Shown in pieces: positions 22,137 through 45,786 of a stretch of 64,000 nucleotides of DNA; the first letter of the stretch is position 1; the number at the start of each line of letters is the position of its first letter. The stretch is from Escherichia coli (GTDB taxonomy: Bacteria > Pseudomonadota > Gammaproteobacteria > Enterobacterales > Enterobacteriaceae): the NCBI RefSeq assembly GCF_024223415.1, contig NZ_CP100503.1; one strand, written 5' to 3'. The notes under the pieces are model-generated. The model was not told where the DNA came from. It worked only from the letters and a program-made list of their open reading frames with translations, and did not search any database. A program made the position numbers and the translations under genes.

Positions 22137-22153
22137 TTTGCTCTAATAAATTG
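22137..22153 (+). promoter_or_regulatory. C1-operator-like motif TTTGCTCTAATAAATTG (operator of immunity module i)
   Basis: Consensus match just after pacB stop. Confidence 0.5.
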
Positions 22154-22284
22154 TGTTTTTTGACTGCCGATGTTACATTGAACCTGACCTCTTGCGCCTT
22201 GAGGCTTTTTCGGTTTATGCTTATCAGGCACCTCATTAAAACGGGTGCCGGGATTGGCCTCCCGCTTAAGTCTAAGGCGATACA

Positions 22285-22305
22285 GACGCCGCTCGCGTCT
22301 TTTTT
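22285..22305 (+). terminator. Hairpin GACGC-loop-GCGTC followed by T6
   Basis: Stem-loop plus T-run in the leader of immunity module i. Confidence 0.45.
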
Positions 22306-22334
22306 GTATCGGCGTACACGCACACCTCTACAAT

Positions 22335-22410
22335 GGTGGGCTGTATGGGGCTACCTTCGGGTAGGCTGGTTACCTTGGACGCCAGTAAGGCCAACTCCGT
22401 ACAGTCCACC
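22335..22410 (+). ncRNA. c4: c4-like antisense repressor RNA, module i (about 76 nt)
   Basis: Shares scaffold GGTGGG...ATGGGG...TTCGG...CTGGTT-[b']-GCCAGT-[a']-C.CCGT...CCACC with the other two modules; carries CCTTGGAC and GGCCAA complementary to GTCTAAGG (22270, 22452) and ATTGGCC/ATTGGTC (22253, 22420). Confidence 0.55.
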
Positions 22411-22470
22411 GCCAGCAAGATTGGTCTCTTCTGCGGTGGTTACATACCAACGTCTAAGGAGGCTGCCAAT

Positions 22471-22692
22471 ATGGCTACTATCCCTACCCCAACTCATCCT
22501 GAATTTATCTGGCGCTTTTACTCCTGCCAAAAACGTCACTATCACTTCGTTATTGCACCAACAGAAGATGAGGCCCGCTCTCAGCTTCCTGACGCCCCAT
22601 GTATTTTCTCTGCCCGTTTTTCCACTGATTCACGCAATTCTCTCAGTTACTGGTGCCTCCCTGTTAACGCTTCTGCTCAGGAGGGACTATGA
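22471..22692 (+). CDS. icd: Icd-like protein (73 aa), translationally coupled to ant
   Basis: 73-codon ORF (MATIPTPTHPEFIWRFYSCQKRHYHF...) with ATGA overlap to ant; AGGAGG SD. The 119-aa track ORF 22333..22692 is an upstream extension across the RNA gene. Confidence 0.6.
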   Translation: MATIPTPTHPEFIWRFYSCQKRHYHFVIAPTEDEARSQLPDAPCIFSARFSTDSRNSLSYWCLPVNASAQEGL

Positions 22693-23804
22693 GAACGTCA
22701 TTAGTCACCCGTGAAGAGATGATCGAGGCAATTGAACAGCACACTGCCTGTATCAGTACCAGGGATATACCGGGCGTTATTGCCAACTACTTCATGATCA
22801 CCAAACAACTTTACCGGAGAAAGGACAAGAACGCGGTTCACCGCATTCTGCTAACCGATATCCGCGAATACCTGCTCGAACAGGGTCATCTGAATTACGC
22901 AACCGTCGCAGCCGAAACACGCAAGGAGGCACACAGAATGAAAGCAACTAACGTTAAATCAGAAAAAATTCATGCAACTTCAGTTCAGGAATCAGAGCTG
23001 GTGGTTGTTCAGAATCAGTCTGATGAAATTCCCGTTCTGGAATGGCTGGGAGTGCGTGTAGTGACAACCAAGATCCTTGCTAAGGGGTATGGGACCGATG
23101 CGGATAACATCAAGAAGAACTTTTCCCGTAATGCTGAACGTTTTTGTGAAGGCAAGCATTTCTATAAAGTTATTGGAGATGATTTGAACAATTTGCGGGT
23201 GACTTTAAGTAACTCACAAAATCCCATCTCTCCTAAAGCCCGTTCACTCATCCTCTGGACAGAACGCGGCGCTGCCCGTCACGCTAAAATGCTCGAAACC
23301 GATCAGGCATGGGCATTCTTTGAAAAACTGGAAGACAGCTACTTCCGGCAAAAAGAACAGCAACCGGTTGCAATCCCCCAAACATTACCAGAAGCCCTAC
23401 GCCTGGCTGCCGAACTGGCTGAACAAAAGCAGCTTCTGGAACAGAAAGCCCACCAGCTAAATCAGCAGCTGGTGGCCGCCGCTCCTAAGGTCGATTTTGC
23501 CGACCGGGTATCAGTAGCTAAAGGGATCCTGATTGGGAATTTTGCAAAGGTTGTTGGACTTAAGCAAAACGCGCTGTTTGCCTGGTTACGGGAGAACGGC
23601 ATCCTGATAGCGTCCGGTGGACGTAAAAATGTGCCGTTCCAGCAGTACATCAACGCGGGGTATTTCACGGTGAAAGAAGTGGTGCTGGATGATGAAGATG
23701 GCTACCAGATACGGTTGACGCCTCAATTAACGGGTAAAGGCCAGCAGTGGTTGACGCGTAAACTGCTCGATGCTGGCTTGTTAAAACCGGTGGCGGCTGA
23801 ATAA
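22689..23804 (+). CDS. ant: Antirepressor Ant-like protein, paralog i (371 aa; AntA/Bro-N-like central domain, conserved Ant C-terminal domain)
   Basis: Conserved N-terminal 85 aa and C-terminal about 150 aa shared with four other genes in the window; immI-type context. Confidence 0.65.
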   Translation: MRTSLVTREEMIEAIEQHTACISTRDIPGVIANYFMITKQLYRRKDKNAVHRILLTDIREYLLEQGHLNYATVAAETRKEAHRMKATNVKSEKIHATSVQESELVVVQNQSDEIPVLEWLGVRVVTTKILAKGYGTDADNIKKNFSRNAERFCEGKHFYKVIGDDLNNLRVTLSNSQNPISPKARSLILWTERGAARHAKMLETDQAWAFFEKLEDSYFRQKEQQPVAIPQTLPEALRLAAELAEQKQLLEQKAHQLNQQLVAAAPKVDFADRVSVAKGILIGNFAKVVGLKQNALFAWLRENGILIASGGRKNVPFQQYINAGYFTVKEVVLDDEDGYQIRLTPQLTGKGQQWLTRKLLDAGLLKPVAAE

Positions 23805-29569: not shown

Positions 29570-29759
29570 TGCACAAAAGAGCGGGTTTGTATTCCGCATC
29601 CAATCAATCAAGAAGGAGTATAGCACACAGGTACTGAAGTGAAAAAATGTGATTCGCGATTAACAAAATATCTACCATTGCTCTAATTGATTGATATAAT
29701 TAAGCCGCAGTTTTTGTCAACTACGAAGACATTGCCATTATAGACTCCGTGACATCATT

Positions 29760-29783
29760 GGCGGCCGAAAGGCCGCCTTTTTT
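29760..29783 (+). terminator. Rho-independent terminator candidate (GGCGGCC-GAAA-GGCCGCC-T6)
   Basis: GC-rich 7-bp stem, tetraloop, T6. Confidence 0.55.
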
Positions 29784-29785
29784 AA

Positions 29786-30850
29786 TCATTCAGCCGCCAC
29801 AGGTTTTAACAAGCCAGCATCGAGCAGTTTACGCGTCAACCACTGCTGGCCTTTCCCCGTTAATTGGGGCGTCAGCCGTATCTGGTAGCCCTCTTCATCA
29901 TCCAGCACCACTTCTTTCACTGTGAAATATCCGGCGTTTATGTACTGCTGGAACGGTACATTTTTACGTCCACCGGACGCTATCAGGATGCCGTTCTCCC
30001 GTAACCAGGCAAACAGCGCGTTTTGCTTAAGTCCAACAACCTTTGCAAAATTCCCAATCAGGATTCCATTAGCCACTGATACCCGGTCGGCAAAATCGAC
30101 TTTAGGAGCGGCGGCCACCAGCTGCTGATTTAGCTGGTGGGCTTTCTGTTCCAGAAGTTGCTTTTGTTCAGCCAACTCGGCAGCCAGGCGGAGGGCTTCG
30201 GGGAGTGTCTGGGGGATCGCTGGAGAAGCAGCGCTAACCTGCTGCAACTCCTCCAGCTTGTCGATCAACGAACGGCGGACCGCTTTTGACTCGCGCGCGG
30301 CAACTCGCAGGGCTTGTTTGTAGGTCATGGTTATGACCTCAAAAGAGCGCCCAGCCCTTGTGCCATGGGATTTTACGAAAGTTTCGTAAAATTCCCCATC
30401 AAGTTCATCCTTAATTCTATTGAGAAAATCGTTATTGCGGATCTCATTTTCCCCACATAGCTTGCGCGCCTCATTGACCATCTTTAACAGTGTCTGGCTG
30501 TCGATTGTGTCGCCCGTACTGGGGATAACATCCATGGCTGGTAGTGGTGTGGATTCTATCAAAGGCTTTGTAACGACAACATCTGGTTTGCTTGCTTTCA
30601 TTCTGTGTGCCTCCTTGCGTGCTTCGGCGGTTACGGTTGCATAATCAAGACGACCCTGTTCGAGCAGGTATTCACGGATATCAGTTAGCAGAATGCGGTG
30701 AACCGCGTTCTTGTCCTTTCTCCGGTAAAGTTGTTTGGTGATCATGAAGTAGTTGGCTATAACACCAGGAATGTCCCTGGCGCTGATACAGATTGTGTGC
30801 TGTTCAATAGCCTCGATCATTTCTTCACGGGTAACTAATGACGTTCTCAT
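29786..30850 (-). CDS. ant: Antirepressor Ant-like protein, paralog ii (354 aa; Rha-like central domain)
   Basis: Shares N- and C-terminal domains with paralogs i and iii; different central domain; coupled to icd. Confidence 0.65.
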   Translation of the reverse strand: MRTSLVTREEMIEAIEQHTICISARDIPGVIANYFMITKQLYRRKDKNAVHRILLTDIREYLLEQGRLDYATVTAEARKEAHRMKASKPDVVVTKPLIESTPLPAMDVIPSTGDTIDSQTLLKMVNEARKLCGENEIRNNDFLNRIKDELDGEFYETFVKSHGTRAGRSFEVITMTYKQALRVAARESKAVRRSLIDKLEELQQVSAASPAIPQTLPEALRLAAELAEQKQLLEQKAHQLNQQLVAAAPKVDFADRVSVANGILIGNFAKVVGLKQNALFAWLRENGILIASGGRKNVPFQQYINAGYFTVKEVVLDDEEGYQIRLTPQLTGKGQQWLTRKLLDAGLLKPVAAE

Positions 30851-31068
30851 AGCCCCTCCTGAGCAGAAGCGTTAACAGGGAGGCACCAGTAACTGAGAGA
30901 GTTGCGCGAGTCAGTAGAAAAGCGTGCAGAGAAAATGCAGGGAGCGTCAGGAAGCTGAGAACGGGCCTCATCTTCTGTTGGTGCAATGACGAAGTGATAG
31001 TGACGTTTTTGACAAGAATAGAAGCGCCAGATAAATTCCGGGCGTGCGCAAGGATTGGCATTAACCAT
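30847..31068 (-). CDS. icd: Icd-like protein (73 aa), module ii
   Basis: MVNANPCARPEFIWRFYSCQKRHYHF...; ATGA overlap with ant. Confidence 0.6.
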   Translation of the reverse strand: MVNANPCARPEFIWRFYSCQKRHYHFVIAPTEDEARSQLPDAPCIFSARFSTDSRNSLSYWCLPVNASAQEGL

Positions 31069-31118
31069 AGTTACGGCCTCACAAGTTGAATTAACAACCT
31101 GCTACCCGCTGTCAAACA

Positions 31119-31195
31119 GGTGGCAGGACGTGACAGGGTTGACAGACTGGCACTTGTGAAACCAGCAGGCCGAAGCCTCCCCATCACGCCCCACC
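31119..31195 (-). ncRNA. c4: c4-like antisense repressor RNA, module ii (about 77 nt)
   Basis: Same scaffold as module iii but a'/b' are CTGTCAA/CACAAGT, with matching targets TTGACAG/ACTTGTG. Confidence 0.6.
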
Positions 31196-31385
31196 ATAAT
31201 TCGGGCGTAACGCGGTTTTACGGACACAAAAATACCGCAATAACGGAGTGATGCGGTTGTCCGCACAAGTATTCAGGCTGTCAAACCCGGTCGCAGAATT
31301 TGCTACGACGCAGGAACTATAAGCCTGAACGACGGGAAGATCAATAGTCTGGCGTCCAATAGTAGTTTATTTGTTCCAATAAATC

Positions 31386-31402
31386 AAATTTATTAGAGCA
31401 AT
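31386..31402 (-). promoter_or_regulatory. C1 operator, exact consensus on minus strand (ATTGCTCTAATAAATTT)
   Basis: Exact 17-bp match; precedes c4/icd/ant module ii. Confidence 0.6.
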
Positions 31403-31633
31403 ACAATCTGGTTGAATGTTTCCTCTCCGAGGTTGCAATGTGCACACTTATTGTTTTATTTGTATGCACTAATAAATATATTATTTTTAATAATAAATAA
31501 TTGACAACTGACAAGTGACTTCAGTCAGAATCATCACACGCCCGGTACGGATGGATCCCTTTTCAAATATTCCATGGACGGCACAGTCTGAGTACCGGGC
31601 GCTACCTTCAGTTGTATTGCTAAGCCGCCGCTG

Positions 31634-32302
31634 GTGGCTTTTCTTTTTTGTAGGGGCGCTATGGATAAGAAAATATGCGTTGTTTCAATGTGCGTCGGCA
31701 AACCGGCGTCAATGACTGCTGCATGGATCAACAATGAGCTGATCATGGCTGAGCGGACCAGCTACCCTGAACGCCGCCGCGATATGGAACTCCAGCTGCT
31801 GCGCGAATTGCGAGAAAAAGAGGAAAAGGGTTTTATCGTGCTGGTGGAAGAGGAAAACAGCTTTATTACCGGTCGAGTTGGCCAGCGTGTAAGGTTGCGT
31901 GATCCCTTCATGAACGGCAGACCGGTACTGATTGAAGCAATGCAGATTTACAAGGAATTGGAACGCCAGAAAGCGATCAAGTTACCGCGCAAGGAATCCG
32001 GCAAATACATCCTTCACCAAAGCATCTTCGATTCCGAACACGATAAAAAAGGCGATGAATTTTTCAACATCAACTGGAGCGAAATAACGACAGAGCACGT
32101 TCTGACGTTGTTATGCTGCTTCGCAACGGAATATAACAACGTTGCAAGCGCCGACTACATCAGGGCAATGGCTGGAGAAGTTGAGGCACGCCAGGAACCA
32201 TCGTTACTAAGCCCTCTGATTAACATAATTCGCGGCACACAGAGACTTGCGGAAAAAAGCGTTCCACACGGAATCTTAACTGGGAAGGGAAACTATTTTT
32301 AA
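31634..32302 (+). CDS. Hypothetical protein (222 aa; likely start at internal Met MDKKIC...)
   Basis: ORF in an AT-rich island between two inverted immunity modules; no motif recognised. Confidence 0.4.
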   Translation: MAFLFCRGAMDKKICVVSMCVGKPASMTAAWINNELIMAERTSYPERRRDMELQLLRELREKEEKGFIVLVEEENSFITGRVGQRVRLRDPFMNGRPVLIEAMQIYKELERQKAIKLPRKESGKYILHQSIFDSEHDKKGDEFFNINWSEITTEHVLTLLCCFATEYNNVASADYIRAMAGEVEARQEPSLLSPLINIIRGTQRLAEKSVPHGILTGKGNYF

Positions 32303-32335
32303 CATCCCCAAATCCTTTTGGGGAACAACTCATTC

Positions 32336-32653
32336 TTACAATAGCTGCCCCATACATTGTCTCCAGGCACTCCCCTCATTACCGTTATCAAGAAACGTAG
32401 AGGTTGCATAAGGAATGCCTCTGATTTGTGTTGATGTGAATGGACCATCAGACGTCGAAGTTGTGCGCAGTTTTGATGTAAACTCGTAATTTCCACTGAT
32501 GCCTTTCTCTGCCAGAGCTTTTGATTTTGTGATAACTAAATCTGCACATTTCTCTGCGGCTACATATTGCGGGTCTTTTTCAGCTTTTCCGGCACATGCA
32601 GTTATCGTTAAAACGATAGCTGCGGCTAACAAATTACCTAGTTTCATCTGCAT
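32336..32653 (-). CDS. Putative lipoprotein (105 aa)
   Basis: Signal peptide with lipobox LTITAC; convergent with 31634..32302. Confidence 0.5.
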   Translation of the reverse strand: MQMKLGNLLAAAIVLTITACAGKAEKDPQYVAAEKCADLVITKSKALAEKGISGNYEFTSKLRTTSTSDGPFTSTQIRGIPYATSTFLDNGNEGSAWRQCMGQLL

Positions 32654-32752
32654 ACCTTATTAAGTGCATTAAAAACAGTAGGTTGCCAAGGTTTTAAACA
32701 AATTTCAATCCTCCATGACGCTCAATATGAGCAAAAATAACACACAAACATC

Positions 32753-32769
32753 ATTGCTCTAATAAATTT
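32753..32769 (+). promoter_or_regulatory. C1 operator, exact consensus ATTGCTCTAATAAATTT
   Basis: Exact 17-bp match upstream of c4/icd/ant module iii. Confidence 0.6.
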
Positions 32770-32959
32770 GATTTTTTAGGGCAAATAAACTACCATTGCG
32801 CACTGCCCTATTGATCTCCTTACCGTTCAGGCTTATATTCATGCCGTCGTAGCAAATTCTGCGACCGGGTTTAGCAGCCTGAATACTTACGCGGACAACC
32901 GCAGATATCCGATATTGCGGTATTTTCATGTCCGTATAACCGCGTTACGCCCGAATTAT

Positions 32960-33036
32960 GGTGGGGCGTGATGGGGAGGCTTCGGCCTGCTGGTTTCGTA
33001 AGTGCCAGTCTGCTAACCCCGTCACGTCCTGCCACC
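32960..33036 (+). ncRNA. c4: c4-like antisense repressor RNA, module iii (about 77 nt)
   Basis: Carries CGTAAGT (32997) and CTGCTAA (33010) complementary to ACTTACG (32885, 33069) and TTAGCAG (32871, 33039); the last overlaps the icd SD. Confidence 0.6.
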
Positions 33037-33086
33037 TGTTTAGCAGCGGGTCGCAGGTTGTTTTATCAACTTACGAGGCCGTAACT

Positions 33087-33308
33087 ATGGTTAATGCCAA
33101 TCCTTGCGCACGCCCTGAATTTATCTGGCGCTTTTACTCCTGCCAAAAACGTCACTATCACTTCGTTATTGCACCAACAGAAGATGAGGCCCGCTCTCAG
33201 CTTCCTGACGCCCCATGTATTTTCTCTGCCCGCTTTTCCACTGATTCGCGCAACTCTCTCAGTTACTGGTGCCTCCCTGTTAACGCTTCTGCTCAGGAGG
33301 GACTATGA
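33087..33308 (+). CDS. icd: Icd-like protein (73 aa), module iii
   Basis: 73 codons; stop overlaps ant start. Confidence 0.6.
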   Translation: MVNANPCARPEFIWRFYSCQKRHYHFVIAPTEDEARSQLPDAPCIFSARFSTDSRNSLSYWCLPVNASAQEGL

Positions 33309-34417
33309 GAACATCGTTAGTTACCCGTGAAGAGATGATCGAGGCAATTGAACAGCACACTGCCTGTATCAGTACCAGGGATATACCGGGCGTTATTGCC
33401 AACTACTTCATGATCACCAAACAACTTTACCGGAGAAAGGACAAAAACGCGGTTCACCGCATTCTGCTAACCGATATCCGTGAATACCTGCTCGAACAGG
33501 GTCATCTGAATTACGCAACCGTCGCAGCCGAAGCACGCAAGGAGGCACACAGAATGAAAGCAACTAACGTTAAATCAGAAAAAATTTATGCACCTTCAGT
33601 TCAGGAATCGGAACTGGTGGTTGTTCAGAATCAGCCGGATGAAATTCCCGTTCTGGAATGGCAGGGAGTACGTGTCGTGACAACCGAAACTCTTGCTAGA
33701 GGGTATGGGACCGAAACTAATAACATCAAAGTTAACTATACGCGTAATGCTGATCGCTTTGAGGAAGGTAAACATTACTTTCTACTAACTGGTTCAAAAT
33801 TAAAAGAATTGAAGGACAAGGTTACTCAAAGTAACTTAGTCGCACCGCGAGCAAAGCACCTCACTCTCTGGACGGAACGCGGCGCAGCCCGCCACGCTAA
33901 AATGCTCGAAACCGATCAGGCATGGGCATTCTTTGAAAAACTGGAAGACAGCTACTTCCGACAAAAAGAACAGCAACCGATCGCAATCCCCCAGACGCTT
34001 CCTGAAGCTCTGCGCCTGGCTGCCGAACTGGCTGAACAAAAGCAACTTCTGGAACAGAAAGCCCACCAGCTAAATCAGCAGCTGGTGGCCGCAGCCCCTA
34101 AAGTCGAGTTTGCCGACCGGGTATCAGTGGCCAAGGGGATCCTGATTGGGAATTTTGCAAAGGTTGTTGGACTTAAGCAAAACGCGCTGTTTGCCTGGTT
34201 ACGGGAGAACGGCATCCTGATAGCGTCCGGTGGACGTAAAAATGTGCCGTTCCAGCAATACATCAACGCCGGGTATTTCACGGTGAAAGAAGTGGTGCTG
34301 GATGATGAAGATGGCTACCAGATACGGTTGACGCCCCAGCTAACTGGGAAAGGCCAGCAGTGGTTGACGCGTAAACTGCTCGATGCTGGCTTGTTAAAAC
34401 CGGTGGCGGCTGAATAA
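33305..34417 (+). CDS. ant: Antirepressor Ant-like protein, paralog iii (370 aa; AntA/Bro-N-like central domain)
   Basis: Near-identical N/C-terminal domains to paralog i; central domain diverged. Confidence 0.65.
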   Translation: MRTSLVTREEMIEAIEQHTACISTRDIPGVIANYFMITKQLYRRKDKNAVHRILLTDIREYLLEQGHLNYATVAAEARKEAHRMKATNVKSEKIYAPSVQESELVVVQNQPDEIPVLEWQGVRVVTTETLARGYGTETNNIKVNYTRNADRFEEGKHYFLLTGSKLKELKDKVTQSNLVAPRAKHLTLWTERGAARHAKMLETDQAWAFFEKLEDSYFRQKEQQPIAIPQTLPEALRLAAELAEQKQLLEQKAHQLNQQLVAAAPKVEFADRVSVAKGILIGNFAKVVGLKQNALFAWLRENGILIASGGRKNVPFQQYINAGYFTVKEVVLDDEDGYQIRLTPQLTGKGQQWLTRKLLDAGLLKPVAAE

Positions 34418-34459
34418 TGGAAGAATGCCCGGTTGATGCCGGGCAAAAGGGCGGAAAGT

Positions 34460-34708
34460 TTAATCAGCATTCAGGAGCAATGCGTTATCTATGATGATCT
34501 GCTCCCATTCTTCGAATGCCCGGTCGCGGACGCCCTGGGGAACACTGTTAGTTTTGAAATCGACGACCATACGCCATTTCCCGTCCGGACGGTACATGCG
34601 CAGAGCTTTACTTCCCCCTTCCCTGCGCACCTCAACGTTATGCTTGTCAGCAAACTCTTGTAATGCTCGTAGCGTCCCATGCTTTACTGTGTAGTATCGC
34701 TTTTTCAA
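34460..34708 (-). CDS. Small protein (82 aa), Lxc/Bof-like by size and position
   Basis: 82-aa ORF downstream of the darB-like gene and a 146-aa ORF, matching the P1 darB-ulx-lxc order as I recall; sequence not verified. Confidence 0.4.
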   Translation of the reverse strand: MKKRYYTVKHGTLRALQEFADKHNVEVRREGGSKALRMYRPDGKWRMVVDFKTNSVPQGVRDRAFEEWEQIIIDNALLLNAD

Positions 34709-44971: not shown

Positions 44972-45153
44972 TACAATCGTTACGGGTGCTTGAGGCTATC
45001 TGCTTCAGGCATTACCCGAAAAGCAGATAGAAGAAAGCCCCAGATAACATTACGCGTCCTGCAAGACGCTTAACATTAATCTGAGGCCATCTCTATGCTT
45101 AGCATACGTAGATTAACCCTCTCCCCTTTTAAGGAGCAAGGAATTTTTTACTG

Positions 45154-45786
45154 CTATGCCGCATTTCCAATTATGGATTCAGCGACCAGAACAACCCCAT
45201 GCTTACTTCGATCTGGGTGTTCACTCCATATCTCGGATTCAGGAATACTTACCCCGTCATAGCAAACACGTTCGCCGTCAAACGGGTAATACTGAGCGGC
45301 ATCGGTGTCAAGGATAAACACTTTTAGCTCGGAAGAGCGACGGGCGATGTGTTGCCAAAGAGCTTTTCCACCTTCGTATTGCTCATTATCACTGAGCAAA
45401 ACAACACCAGCTTTTGAGGCTACGGTTTCGTAAACAAAAGTAGCTAAACCGACATCCCGGACGGTTCCATCAACCACGATACCTTCAATCTGGGCAACAT
45501 CGCTATCCTCCCAGAACTTCCTTACCAGTACGCCTTCAAGCTGCGGGCGACGTTGAAGTTCAAGAGTAGCGACAACCTTATGGCGCATATCACCATCGAT
45601 AATAGAAGGCGCAGCCTCTATTACAGCTGCAAATGGGGTTTTGGAATCCCATATAACCTGGTAAAGCACACCCTGGATGGTAACTCCGTCCAGGATCGAA
45701 AATCGACGAGCGACAGTACCCGGGGAGTACGACATTGGAATCACAGCCATTTTAGAGTCCCCCTTTAACAGTACAGGCACAAACAT
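45154..45786 (-). CDS. Hypothetical protein (210 aa; start probably internal Met)
   Basis: ORF; no motif recognised. Confidence 0.4.
   Translation of the reverse strand: MFVPVLLKGDSKMAVIPMSYSPGTVARRFSILDGVTIQGVLYQVIWDSKTPFAAVIEAAPSIIDGDMRHKVVATLELQRRPQLEGVLVRKFWEDSDVAQIEGIVVDGTVRDVGLATFVYETVASKAGVVLLSDNEQYEGGKALWQHIARRSSELKVFILDTDAAQYYPFDGERVCYDGVSIPESEIWSEHPDRSKHGVVLVAESIIGNAA

Follow-up and report, generated by a model that had tools for sequence, protein, structure and literature searches.

The immI region of phage P1 comprises a C1 operator, two promoters, a first pair of target sites (a1 and b1), the 77-nt antisense RNA c4, a second pair of target sites (a2 and b2, with b2 at the Shine-Dalgarno sequence (SD) of icd), and icd, which overlaps the antirepressor gene ant, annotated as ant1/ant2. 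In the immI region of phage P22, the sar antisense RNA controls ant. Like c4, sar keeps an antirepressor silent during lysogeny and is one of the contributors to superinfection immunity, but it is encoded in cis on the opposite strand and is fully complementary to its target, whereas c4 lies on the target's own strand and transcript and recognizes two short dispersed sites; the two RNAs are not known to be related in sequence or structure. Here, we describe c4-icd-ant modules in a 64,000-nt stretch of Escherichia coli DNA (hereafter, the window; contig NZ_CP100503.1 of assembly GCF_024223415.1). Two of them, modules ii and iii, are divergently oriented and carry different recognition codes, each matched by its own target sites; a third, module i, is more divergent.

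In the P1 model as presented in PMC8198154, with reference to Citron and Schuster (1990) and Riedel et al. (1993), c4 RNA blocks the translation of icd and hence the expression of ant. According to the same source, Ant inactivates the C1 repressor, and the c4 RNA of a resident does not act on a phage whose c4 code differs. Heteroimmunity between P1 and P7 through c4 is described as established (Citron and Schuster 1990, as cited in PMC8198154 and PMC6906374). The Rfam families C4 (RF01695) and c4-a1b1 (RF03163) derive from PMC2864571.

The region of the window that carries the modules matches P1-like phage-plasmids of E. coli of about 97 kb. The closest match is pMTY1886_untypable_1 (NZ_CP128972.1, 97,409 bp; hereafter, pMTY1886), with 99.3-99.5% identity (99.5% over window positions 29700-34500), and p88_0502-1 (NZ_CP077568.1, a 99-kb plasmid of a bovine O111:H11 isolate) shows 98.5% identity; none of the plasmids and complete E. 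coli genomes searched matched exactly. From classical P1 and P7, only their single immI region matches.

Recognition codes and anatomy of modules ii and iii

We compared modules ii and iii with the annotated immI regions of P1 and P7, and all of their sites aligned in register with the a1, b1, c4, a2, and b2 features (Table 1). Rfam searches called both C4 and c4-a1b1 in each module, in agreement with the original prediction, made from the sequence alone, that the architecture is that of the P1 c4 system; the two c4 regions that it delimited coincided exactly with the 77-nt c4 of P1. The c4 scaffold of modules ii and iii is identical to that of P1 outside a' and b', the c4 segments complementary to a and b, except for one stem base. 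Judged by sequence, modules ii and iii are thus genuine P1 immI-type c4-icd-ant cassettes.

The leaders of the two modules had been taken as near-identical over about 250 bp, which we corrected to 87.9% identity (256 aligned positions, 31 of them different). Two-base changes at the six pairing sites account for 12 of the 31 (hypergeometric P = 0.001), and all twelve heptamers of the predicted coordinated pattern were found in place. The 77-nt c4 RNAs differ at five positions, four of which lie within a' or b'. In each module, a' is perfectly complementary to a1 and a2 of that module, and b' to its b1 and b2.

Written 5' to 3' as target sites, the a and b codes are TTGACAG and GTTAGTG in P1, TTAGCAG and GATTGTG in P7, TTGACAG and ACTTGTG in module ii, and TTAGCAG and ACTTACG in module iii. 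As the original prediction had stated, two-base differences separate P1 from P7; they occur in each of a' and b', and the targets change accordingly. Modules ii and iii follow the same principle of two-base compensatory differences. The a code of module ii is exactly that of P1, and the a code of module iii is exactly that of P7 (complement CTGCTAA), together with the P7 variant of the adjacent stem base. The b codes of both modules differ from those of P1 and P7; among the module ii and iii codes, b alone is new, whereas the a codes are already those of the two phages. P1 and P7 represent two specificities in two phages, whereas here both occur in one replicon. The original prediction of two specificities in a single replicon stood as regards the coexistence of distinct codes, but the window holds three modules rather than two. 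The modules differ from P1 immI also in their number per replicon and their location: P1 immI sits between sim and kilA-repL, whereas modules ii and iii flank mat, near c8 and cre.

Covariance-model alignment and minimum-free-energy prediction gave c4 folds with a long closing stem and two inner hairpins (-43 to -46 kcal/mol; -46 kcal/mol in module iii), in which b' is predicted to lie in the loop of the second hairpin and a' in the unpaired stretch after it. The closing stem and the 3' GCCACC are invariant columns in an alignment of 86 leaders. The downstream target copies had been placed just before icd, the second at its SD; indeed, b2 overlaps the GAGG motif, 11-12 nt ahead of the icd ATG, in both modules. 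In both, the ant start overlaps the icd stop in an ATGA. Upstream of the leaders, sequence matches to the C1 operator and the P1c4 promoter lie in register with the annotated P1 sites; the annotated P1c4 (P51b) boxes aligned to the promoter-like site of module iii are TTGACC (-35) and TATAGT (-10).

A hairpin (CCGCA...TGCGG) followed by a U-rich run is located between b1 and c4 in both modules (32899-32927, plus strand; 31228-31256, minus strand) and is kept in the 86 aligned leaders. This hairpin may serve as an attenuator or terminator, and binding of c4 to a1/b1 could then influence whether it is used. A simple terminator scan made no call on this hairpin because its loop exceeds 8 nt.

Icd is identical (100%) in modules ii and iii, and the module iii copy shares 82% identity with P1 Icd. 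The Ant proteins are more variable: Ant of module ii is 76% identical to P1 Ant1 and 67% to Ant of module iii, the latter shares 56% identity with P1 Ant1 and 89% with its module i counterpart, and the Ant variants overall are 55-76% identical to P1 Ant1. The ant genes are mosaic, with the central Ant domain swapped between modules ii and iii. The icd and ant open reading frames (ORFs) are intact in all three modules of the window.

The cassettes appear from their parts to hold everything that the established P1 model needs. By this model, C1-controlled and constitutive promoters would transcribe the a1/b1 leader, c4, a2/b2, icd, and ant in this order, and by analogy with P1, the transcript would be processed to the 77-nt c4 RNA. 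The exposed b' (in the hairpin loop) and a' (single-stranded) would pair with b2 and a2 of the same kind of transcript. Pairing at b2 would cover the icd ribosome-binding site and leave icd untranslated, and because the ant start overlaps the icd stop, ant would stay off along with icd, and lysogeny would be kept. Specificity would reside in a two-part code, with two variable bases in a and up to six in b, and each c4 would be expected to control its own cassette.

Alternatively, the extra cassettes might act as type I toxin-antitoxin-like addiction modules that stabilize a low-copy plasmid, with Icd as the toxin and c4 as the antitoxin. Icd blocks FtsZ ring formation and inhibits growth (PMC11897509) and is held off by an antisense RNA, and the replicon already collects such systems (phd-doc and higBA in pMTY1886, the closest complete plasmid; sok in the window). 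We consider this explanation very improbable, since c4 and its target lie on one transcript, which gives no hint of the unequal RNA lifetimes required for post-segregational killing, and the full-length ant and C1 operator in every cassette tie it to the lysis-lysogeny circuit.

Co-variation of the codes across related leaders

We scanned viral contigs and species-representative genomes with a pattern in which the c4 core was constant, a' and b' were free, and the b' loop was N{7,8}, and obtained at least 120 viral loci and matches in 3 species-representative genomes. Codes were tallied for 140 modules among the matches listed, with one spurious soil match excluded. Among these, a' occurred as two main alleles, those of P1 and P7, and one rare third allele, while b' occurred as at least 12 alleles, in at least 18 a'/b' combinations. 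The targets matched the module's own c4 in 133 of the 134 modules of other replicons that had enough flanking sequence among the matches listed, with fixed offsets; a match meant that a1 and a2 were exact complements of the module's own a' and that b1 and b2 matched its own b' over at least 7 nt.

In the alignment of 86 distinct leaders, 99.0% of the cells that relate a1 to a', b1 to b', a' to a2, and b' to b2 were paired, compared with 79% in shuffles. None of 500 shuffles reached the observed value, and sliding the register reduced it to 27-51%. Changes occurred on both sides in 8 of 14 pairs, with about 286 cells compensated, and one-sided changes were essentially absent. The few unpaired cells belong to 8-nt-loop variants, which a gap shifts in the alignment; read directly, these variants show correct pairing. 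Given the constant offsets and the outcomes of the shuffled and slid-register controls, we reject chance and misalignment as sources of the motif pattern. Site-by-site complementarity has thus been maintained during the evolution of these leaders. The P1 record labels a1 and b1 only as putative, and the clean co-variation provides strong evolutionary evidence that c4 contacts both sets of targets, pairing with a1/b1 as well as with a2/b2.

Divergent relatives among the IMG/VR contigs have b' loops of 8 nt (e.g., CCCAATTT and CCTAGAAC) instead of the 7 nt of the P1 type, other leader hairpins, and a shorter Icd N-terminus. Their a/b complementarity is still exact, and the code system therefore reaches beyond the P1/P7 clade. 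A match to the constant c4 core was also found in NZ_JANXMI010000105.1, a contig of a betaproteobacterial metagenome-assembled genome labelled Rugamonas sp., with a third a' allele, CTTCCAA, and the b' sequence CTTTGGGT; this could represent a real spread outside Enterobacterales or a binning contaminant.

Stacking, exchange, and separateness of the codes

Close complete relatives of the window replicon hold four or five modules whose codes are all different. In addition to modules ii and iii, pMTY1886 has a canonical immI that adjoins kilA-repL and carries the exact P1 code. The plasmid p88_0502-1 contains five cassettes with five codes (at positions 2504, 30199, 59164, 65658, and 67484 of the record), including a canonical immI whose code is a P1-a/P7-b hybrid and one extra cassette insertion site after dnaB; its module ii and iii codes are those of the window, and its module ii leader is 99.7% identical. 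A query combining c4 and icd matched 685 plasmid records at 1,140 places, with two or more places in 28 of 60 evenly sampled records. P1-like plasmids thus commonly hold several modules each, and coexistence in itself is less surprising than the original prediction took it to be. P1-type module DNA was present in 852 of 5,426 complete E. coli genomes, and the divergent ii-mat-iii arrangement in only 4. Together, these data suggest that P1/P7 heteroimmunity samples a small part of a far wider range of natural codes and that the stacking of several codes in one replicon is routine.

Over 4.8 kb, 26 positions distinguish the window from pMTY1886, and 19 of them cluster within 31081-31288, in the module ii leader. 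From the window to pMTY1886, b1, b', and b2 switch together (CACAAGT to CGTAAGT) and a is unchanged, which points to a recent exchange of a specificity cassette. Identical codes were also found in different flanking contexts (alignment rows L102 and L132), and given this and the clustered patch, code cassettes move by recombination. A simple single-tract gene conversion from module iii was rejected as the source of the patch, as a' lies 6 nt from b' and is unchanged; more probably, another cassette was imported or the tract is mosaic.

To what extent modules ii and iii are separate can be approached through their pairing energies. Cognate duplexes have about -7.3 kcal/mol in a and -8.4 to -8.9 kcal/mol in b. 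In non-cognate combinations, two or more Watson-Crick pairs are always lost, whether in a, in b, or in both, a reduction of the same order as the difference between P1 and P7. On leader iii, c4 of module ii encounters one mismatch and one G-U pair in a and two mismatches in b; on leader ii, c4 of module iii encounters one mismatch and one G-U pair at the a site.

Several observations weigh against fully separate and functional channels. The b' of c4-iii and the b sites of leader ii can form a continuous helix of six Watson-Crick and two G-U pairs (-3.6 kcal/mol); cross-talk of c4-iii onto leader ii is possible by this calculation, and the independence of the two channels may for this reason be asymmetric. 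In pMTY1886, modules ii and iii have the same b code and differ only in a, and the a code of module ii is common to the canonical P1-type module. The lack of full-code duplicates among co-resident modules, 0 against 3.2 expected in 14 isolates with two to four P1-type modules drawn from the matches listed, speaks for separate channels, but the permutation test behind this comparison (naive P = 0.025) ignores relatedness and insertion-site history, and a or b alone is sometimes common to co-resident modules; the excess of distinct codes is only suggestive. Finally, the ant gene of the module i homolog in p88_0502-1 has an internal stop, and modules can therefore decay.

The shared a and b codes, the wobble pairing of c4-iii with leader ii, and the identical Icd proteins would fit functionally redundant, cross-repressing copies, whose site differences would be neutral drift kept compatible within each copy. 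We find such redundancy unlikely. The a difference between modules ii and iii is exactly that of P1 and P7, which contributes to an experimentally known heteroimmunity, and co-resident modules show no full-code duplicates. Moreover, the numbers of b alleles and of code combinations, together with the near absence of one-sided changes, resemble diversifying code turnover more than drift.

The mosaic structure of the modules with its swapped Ant domain, the 19-difference patch between two 99.5%-identical plasmids, and the ant pseudogene in p88_0502-1 could also be read as signs that P1-like plasmids have recombined and left the extra cassettes behind as inert remnants. This seems to us the least probable explanation of all, because all three pairs of icd and ant ORFs are intact, operators, promoters, and the six pairing sites are preserved in the window, and perfect complementarity at three dispersed copies per site would not survive without selection. 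As with addiction and redundancy, we judge it less likely than separate cassettes.

We hold with good confidence that the modules are self-contained immI-type cassettes with a two-part code and that modules ii and iii most likely form separate regulatory channels, as would module i and, in close relatives, the canonical immI. Orthogonality of the modules is plausible from their codes. Stacking might pay in two ways, for and against which we find the case evenly balanced: several codes would silence the antirepressors of incoming relatives that carry any of them, giving broader immunity, and upon infection of a lysogen that lacks one of the codes, the corresponding antirepressor would escape and inactivate the resident C1, and immunity would be broken. 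More tentatively, the modules may constitute a combinatorial two-site RNA barcode of two a codes and at least 12 b codes, reshuffled by recombination, with up to five mutually orthogonal cassettes per genome. Such a barcode would serve as an arsenal of both immunity and anti-immunity, with selection for codes that competitors use and for codes that they lack, and the resulting RNA arms race would shape which phage-plasmids, including carriers of resistance, coexist or displace one another.

PMC6906374 mentions in passing additional icd-ant homologs close to mat, as well as an ant located between pacB and c1, and PMC6799933 likewise mentions a second c4/icd region in a D6-like plasmid. In the literature searched, we found no account that compares the c4 codes of different modules or describes the stacking of distinct codes, although the D6 paper (Gilcrease and Casjens 2018) may discuss multiple immI-like regions or c4 types. 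The mechanism and the RNA family are known, and the population-level picture of the codes appears to be undescribed. If the channels are independent, this picture would account for exclusion and invasion among related phage-plasmids, elements that often carry resistance and virulence genes in E. coli and Salmonella. It would also provide short natural pairs of RNA regulators and targets, probably orthogonal and on a constant scaffold, for synthetic biology.

Module i and the surrounding replicon

Module i has an isrK-like leader in place of c4-a1b1, and its code (TTGGCCT and TTGGTCT in a; GTCTAAGG in b) is unrelated to those of modules ii and iii. Each of its b sites pairs with its own c4 through seven Watson-Crick pairs and one G-U pair. 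A clear intrinsic terminator is present after b1 and before c4. In Salmonella, the isrK-orf45-anrP locus of Gifsy-1, which Hershko-Shalev and colleagues are said to have described in 2016, reportedly encodes the IsrK RNA (Rfam RF01394). Module i resembles this locus in that its isrK-type leader immediately precedes a C4-family RNA and an antirepressor operon, whereas the leaders of modules ii and iii are of the c4-a1b1 type. The IsrK locus of Salmonella and the immI region of P1 may accordingly be variants of a single system that differ in their leaders.

Table 1. Features of the three c4-icd-ant modules in the window. Rfam gathering scores are 45 for C4 (RF01695) and 46.7 for c4-a1b1 (RF03163).
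Feature	Position	Strand	Evidence or remark
Module iii C1 operator-like site ATTGCTCTAATAAATTT	32753-32769	+	16/17 identity, aligned with annotated P1 Oc4 (Op51) AATGCTCTAATAAATTT
Module iii sigma-70 promoter-like site, TTGATC-17 nt-TATATT	32811-32839	+	Promoter scan; P1c4 (P51b) homolog
Module iii c4-a1b1 leader (RF03163)	32833-32885	+	54.6 bits
Module iii a1 TTAGCAG	32871-32877	+	Motif position, inside c4-a1b1 element
Module iii b1 ACTTACG	32885-32891	+	Motif position, after a1
Module iii c4 antisense RNA, 77 nt	32960-33036	+	Rfam C4 (RF01695) match 32954-33039, 70.8 bits
Module iii b' CGTAAGT	32997-33003	+	Hairpin loop in predicted fold
Module iii a' CTGCTAA	33010-33016	+	Single-stranded in predicted fold
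Module iii a2 TTAGCAG	33040-33046	+	Downstream target, co-varies with a'
Module iii b2 ACTTACG(A)	33069-33076 (heptamer 33069-33075)	+	Overlaps SD GAGG 33075-33078
Module iii icd, 73 aa	33087-33308	+	Icd-like cell-division inhibitor; NCBIfam NF033153, 49.8 bits, cut-off 25
Module iii ant, 370-aa antirepressor	33305-34417	+	phrog_63 anti-repressor Ant, E = 9e-135, full length
Module ii C1 operator-like site ATTGCTCTAATAAATTT	31386-31402	-	16/17 identity to annotated P1 Oc4
Module ii sigma-70 promoter-like site, TTGATC-17 nt-TATAGT	31316-31344	-	Promoter scan, alignment; P1c4 (P51b) homolog
Module ii c4-a1b1 leader	31264-31322 (Rfam match 31270-31322)	-	56.8 bits
Module ii a1 TTGACAG	31278-31284	-	Motif position
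Module ii b1 ACTTGTG	31264-31270	-	Motif position
Module ii c4 antisense RNA, 77 nt	31119-31195	-	Rfam C4 match 31116-31201, 68.6 bits; fold
Module ii b' CACAAGT	31152-31158	-	Motif position
Module ii a' CTGTCAA	31139-31145	-	Motif position
Module ii downstream target stretch, including SD GAGG overlap	31077-31115	-	Motif positions
Module ii a2 TTGACAG	31109-31115	-	Motif position
Module ii b2 ACTTGTG(A)	31079-31086 (heptamer 31080-31086)	-	Overlaps SD GAGG
Module ii icd, 73 aa	30847-31068	-	100% identical to module iii Icd
Module ii ant, 354 aa	29786-30850	-	phrog_63, E = 4e-114; ATGA overlap with icd
Module i, whole cassette	22137-23804	+	Rfam C4 and isrK, pairing, ORFs; more divergent than ii/iii
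Module i C1 operator-like site	22137-22153	+	
Module i isrK-like leader (RF01394)	22228-22305	+	60.8 bits; replaces c4-a1b1
Module i a1 TTGGCCT	22254-22260	+	Loop of second isrK-leader hairpin
Module i b1 GTCTAAGG	22270-22277	+	
Module i c4	22329-22416	+	Rfam C4, 75.9 bits
Module i b' CCTTGGAC	22373-22380	+	
Module i a' AGGCCAA	22388-22394	+	
Module i a2 TTGGTCT	22421-22427	+	
Module i b2 GTCTAAGG	22452-22459	+	
Module i icd	22471-22692	+	
Module i ant	22689-23804	+	

The annotated gene order in this part of pMTY1886 is pacA-pacB, icd-ant, c1, higBA, cre, c8, icd-ant (minus strand), mat, a small ORF, and icd-ant (plus strand). In the window, modules ii (29786-31402, minus strand) and iii (32753-34417, plus strand) form an imperfect inverted repeat of about 1.6 kb with two blocks of 90-94% identity, between the arms of which lie mat (31661-32302) and a 105-aa ORF (32336-32653, minus strand; phrog_16031). 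Recombination between the two arms could invert the mat segment.

A sok antitoxin RNA of the hok/sok type I toxin-antitoxin family was detected at 44984-45158 of the window (plus strand, 91.4 bits), and a second sok copy is present in the closest complete plasmid, at 31655-31828 (minus strand) of that plasmid. The C1 operator core TGCTCTAATAAAT has further exact matches at window positions 10510, 25250 (minus strand), 42916, and 58366, which are presumably other C1-controlled operators of the P1-like backbone.

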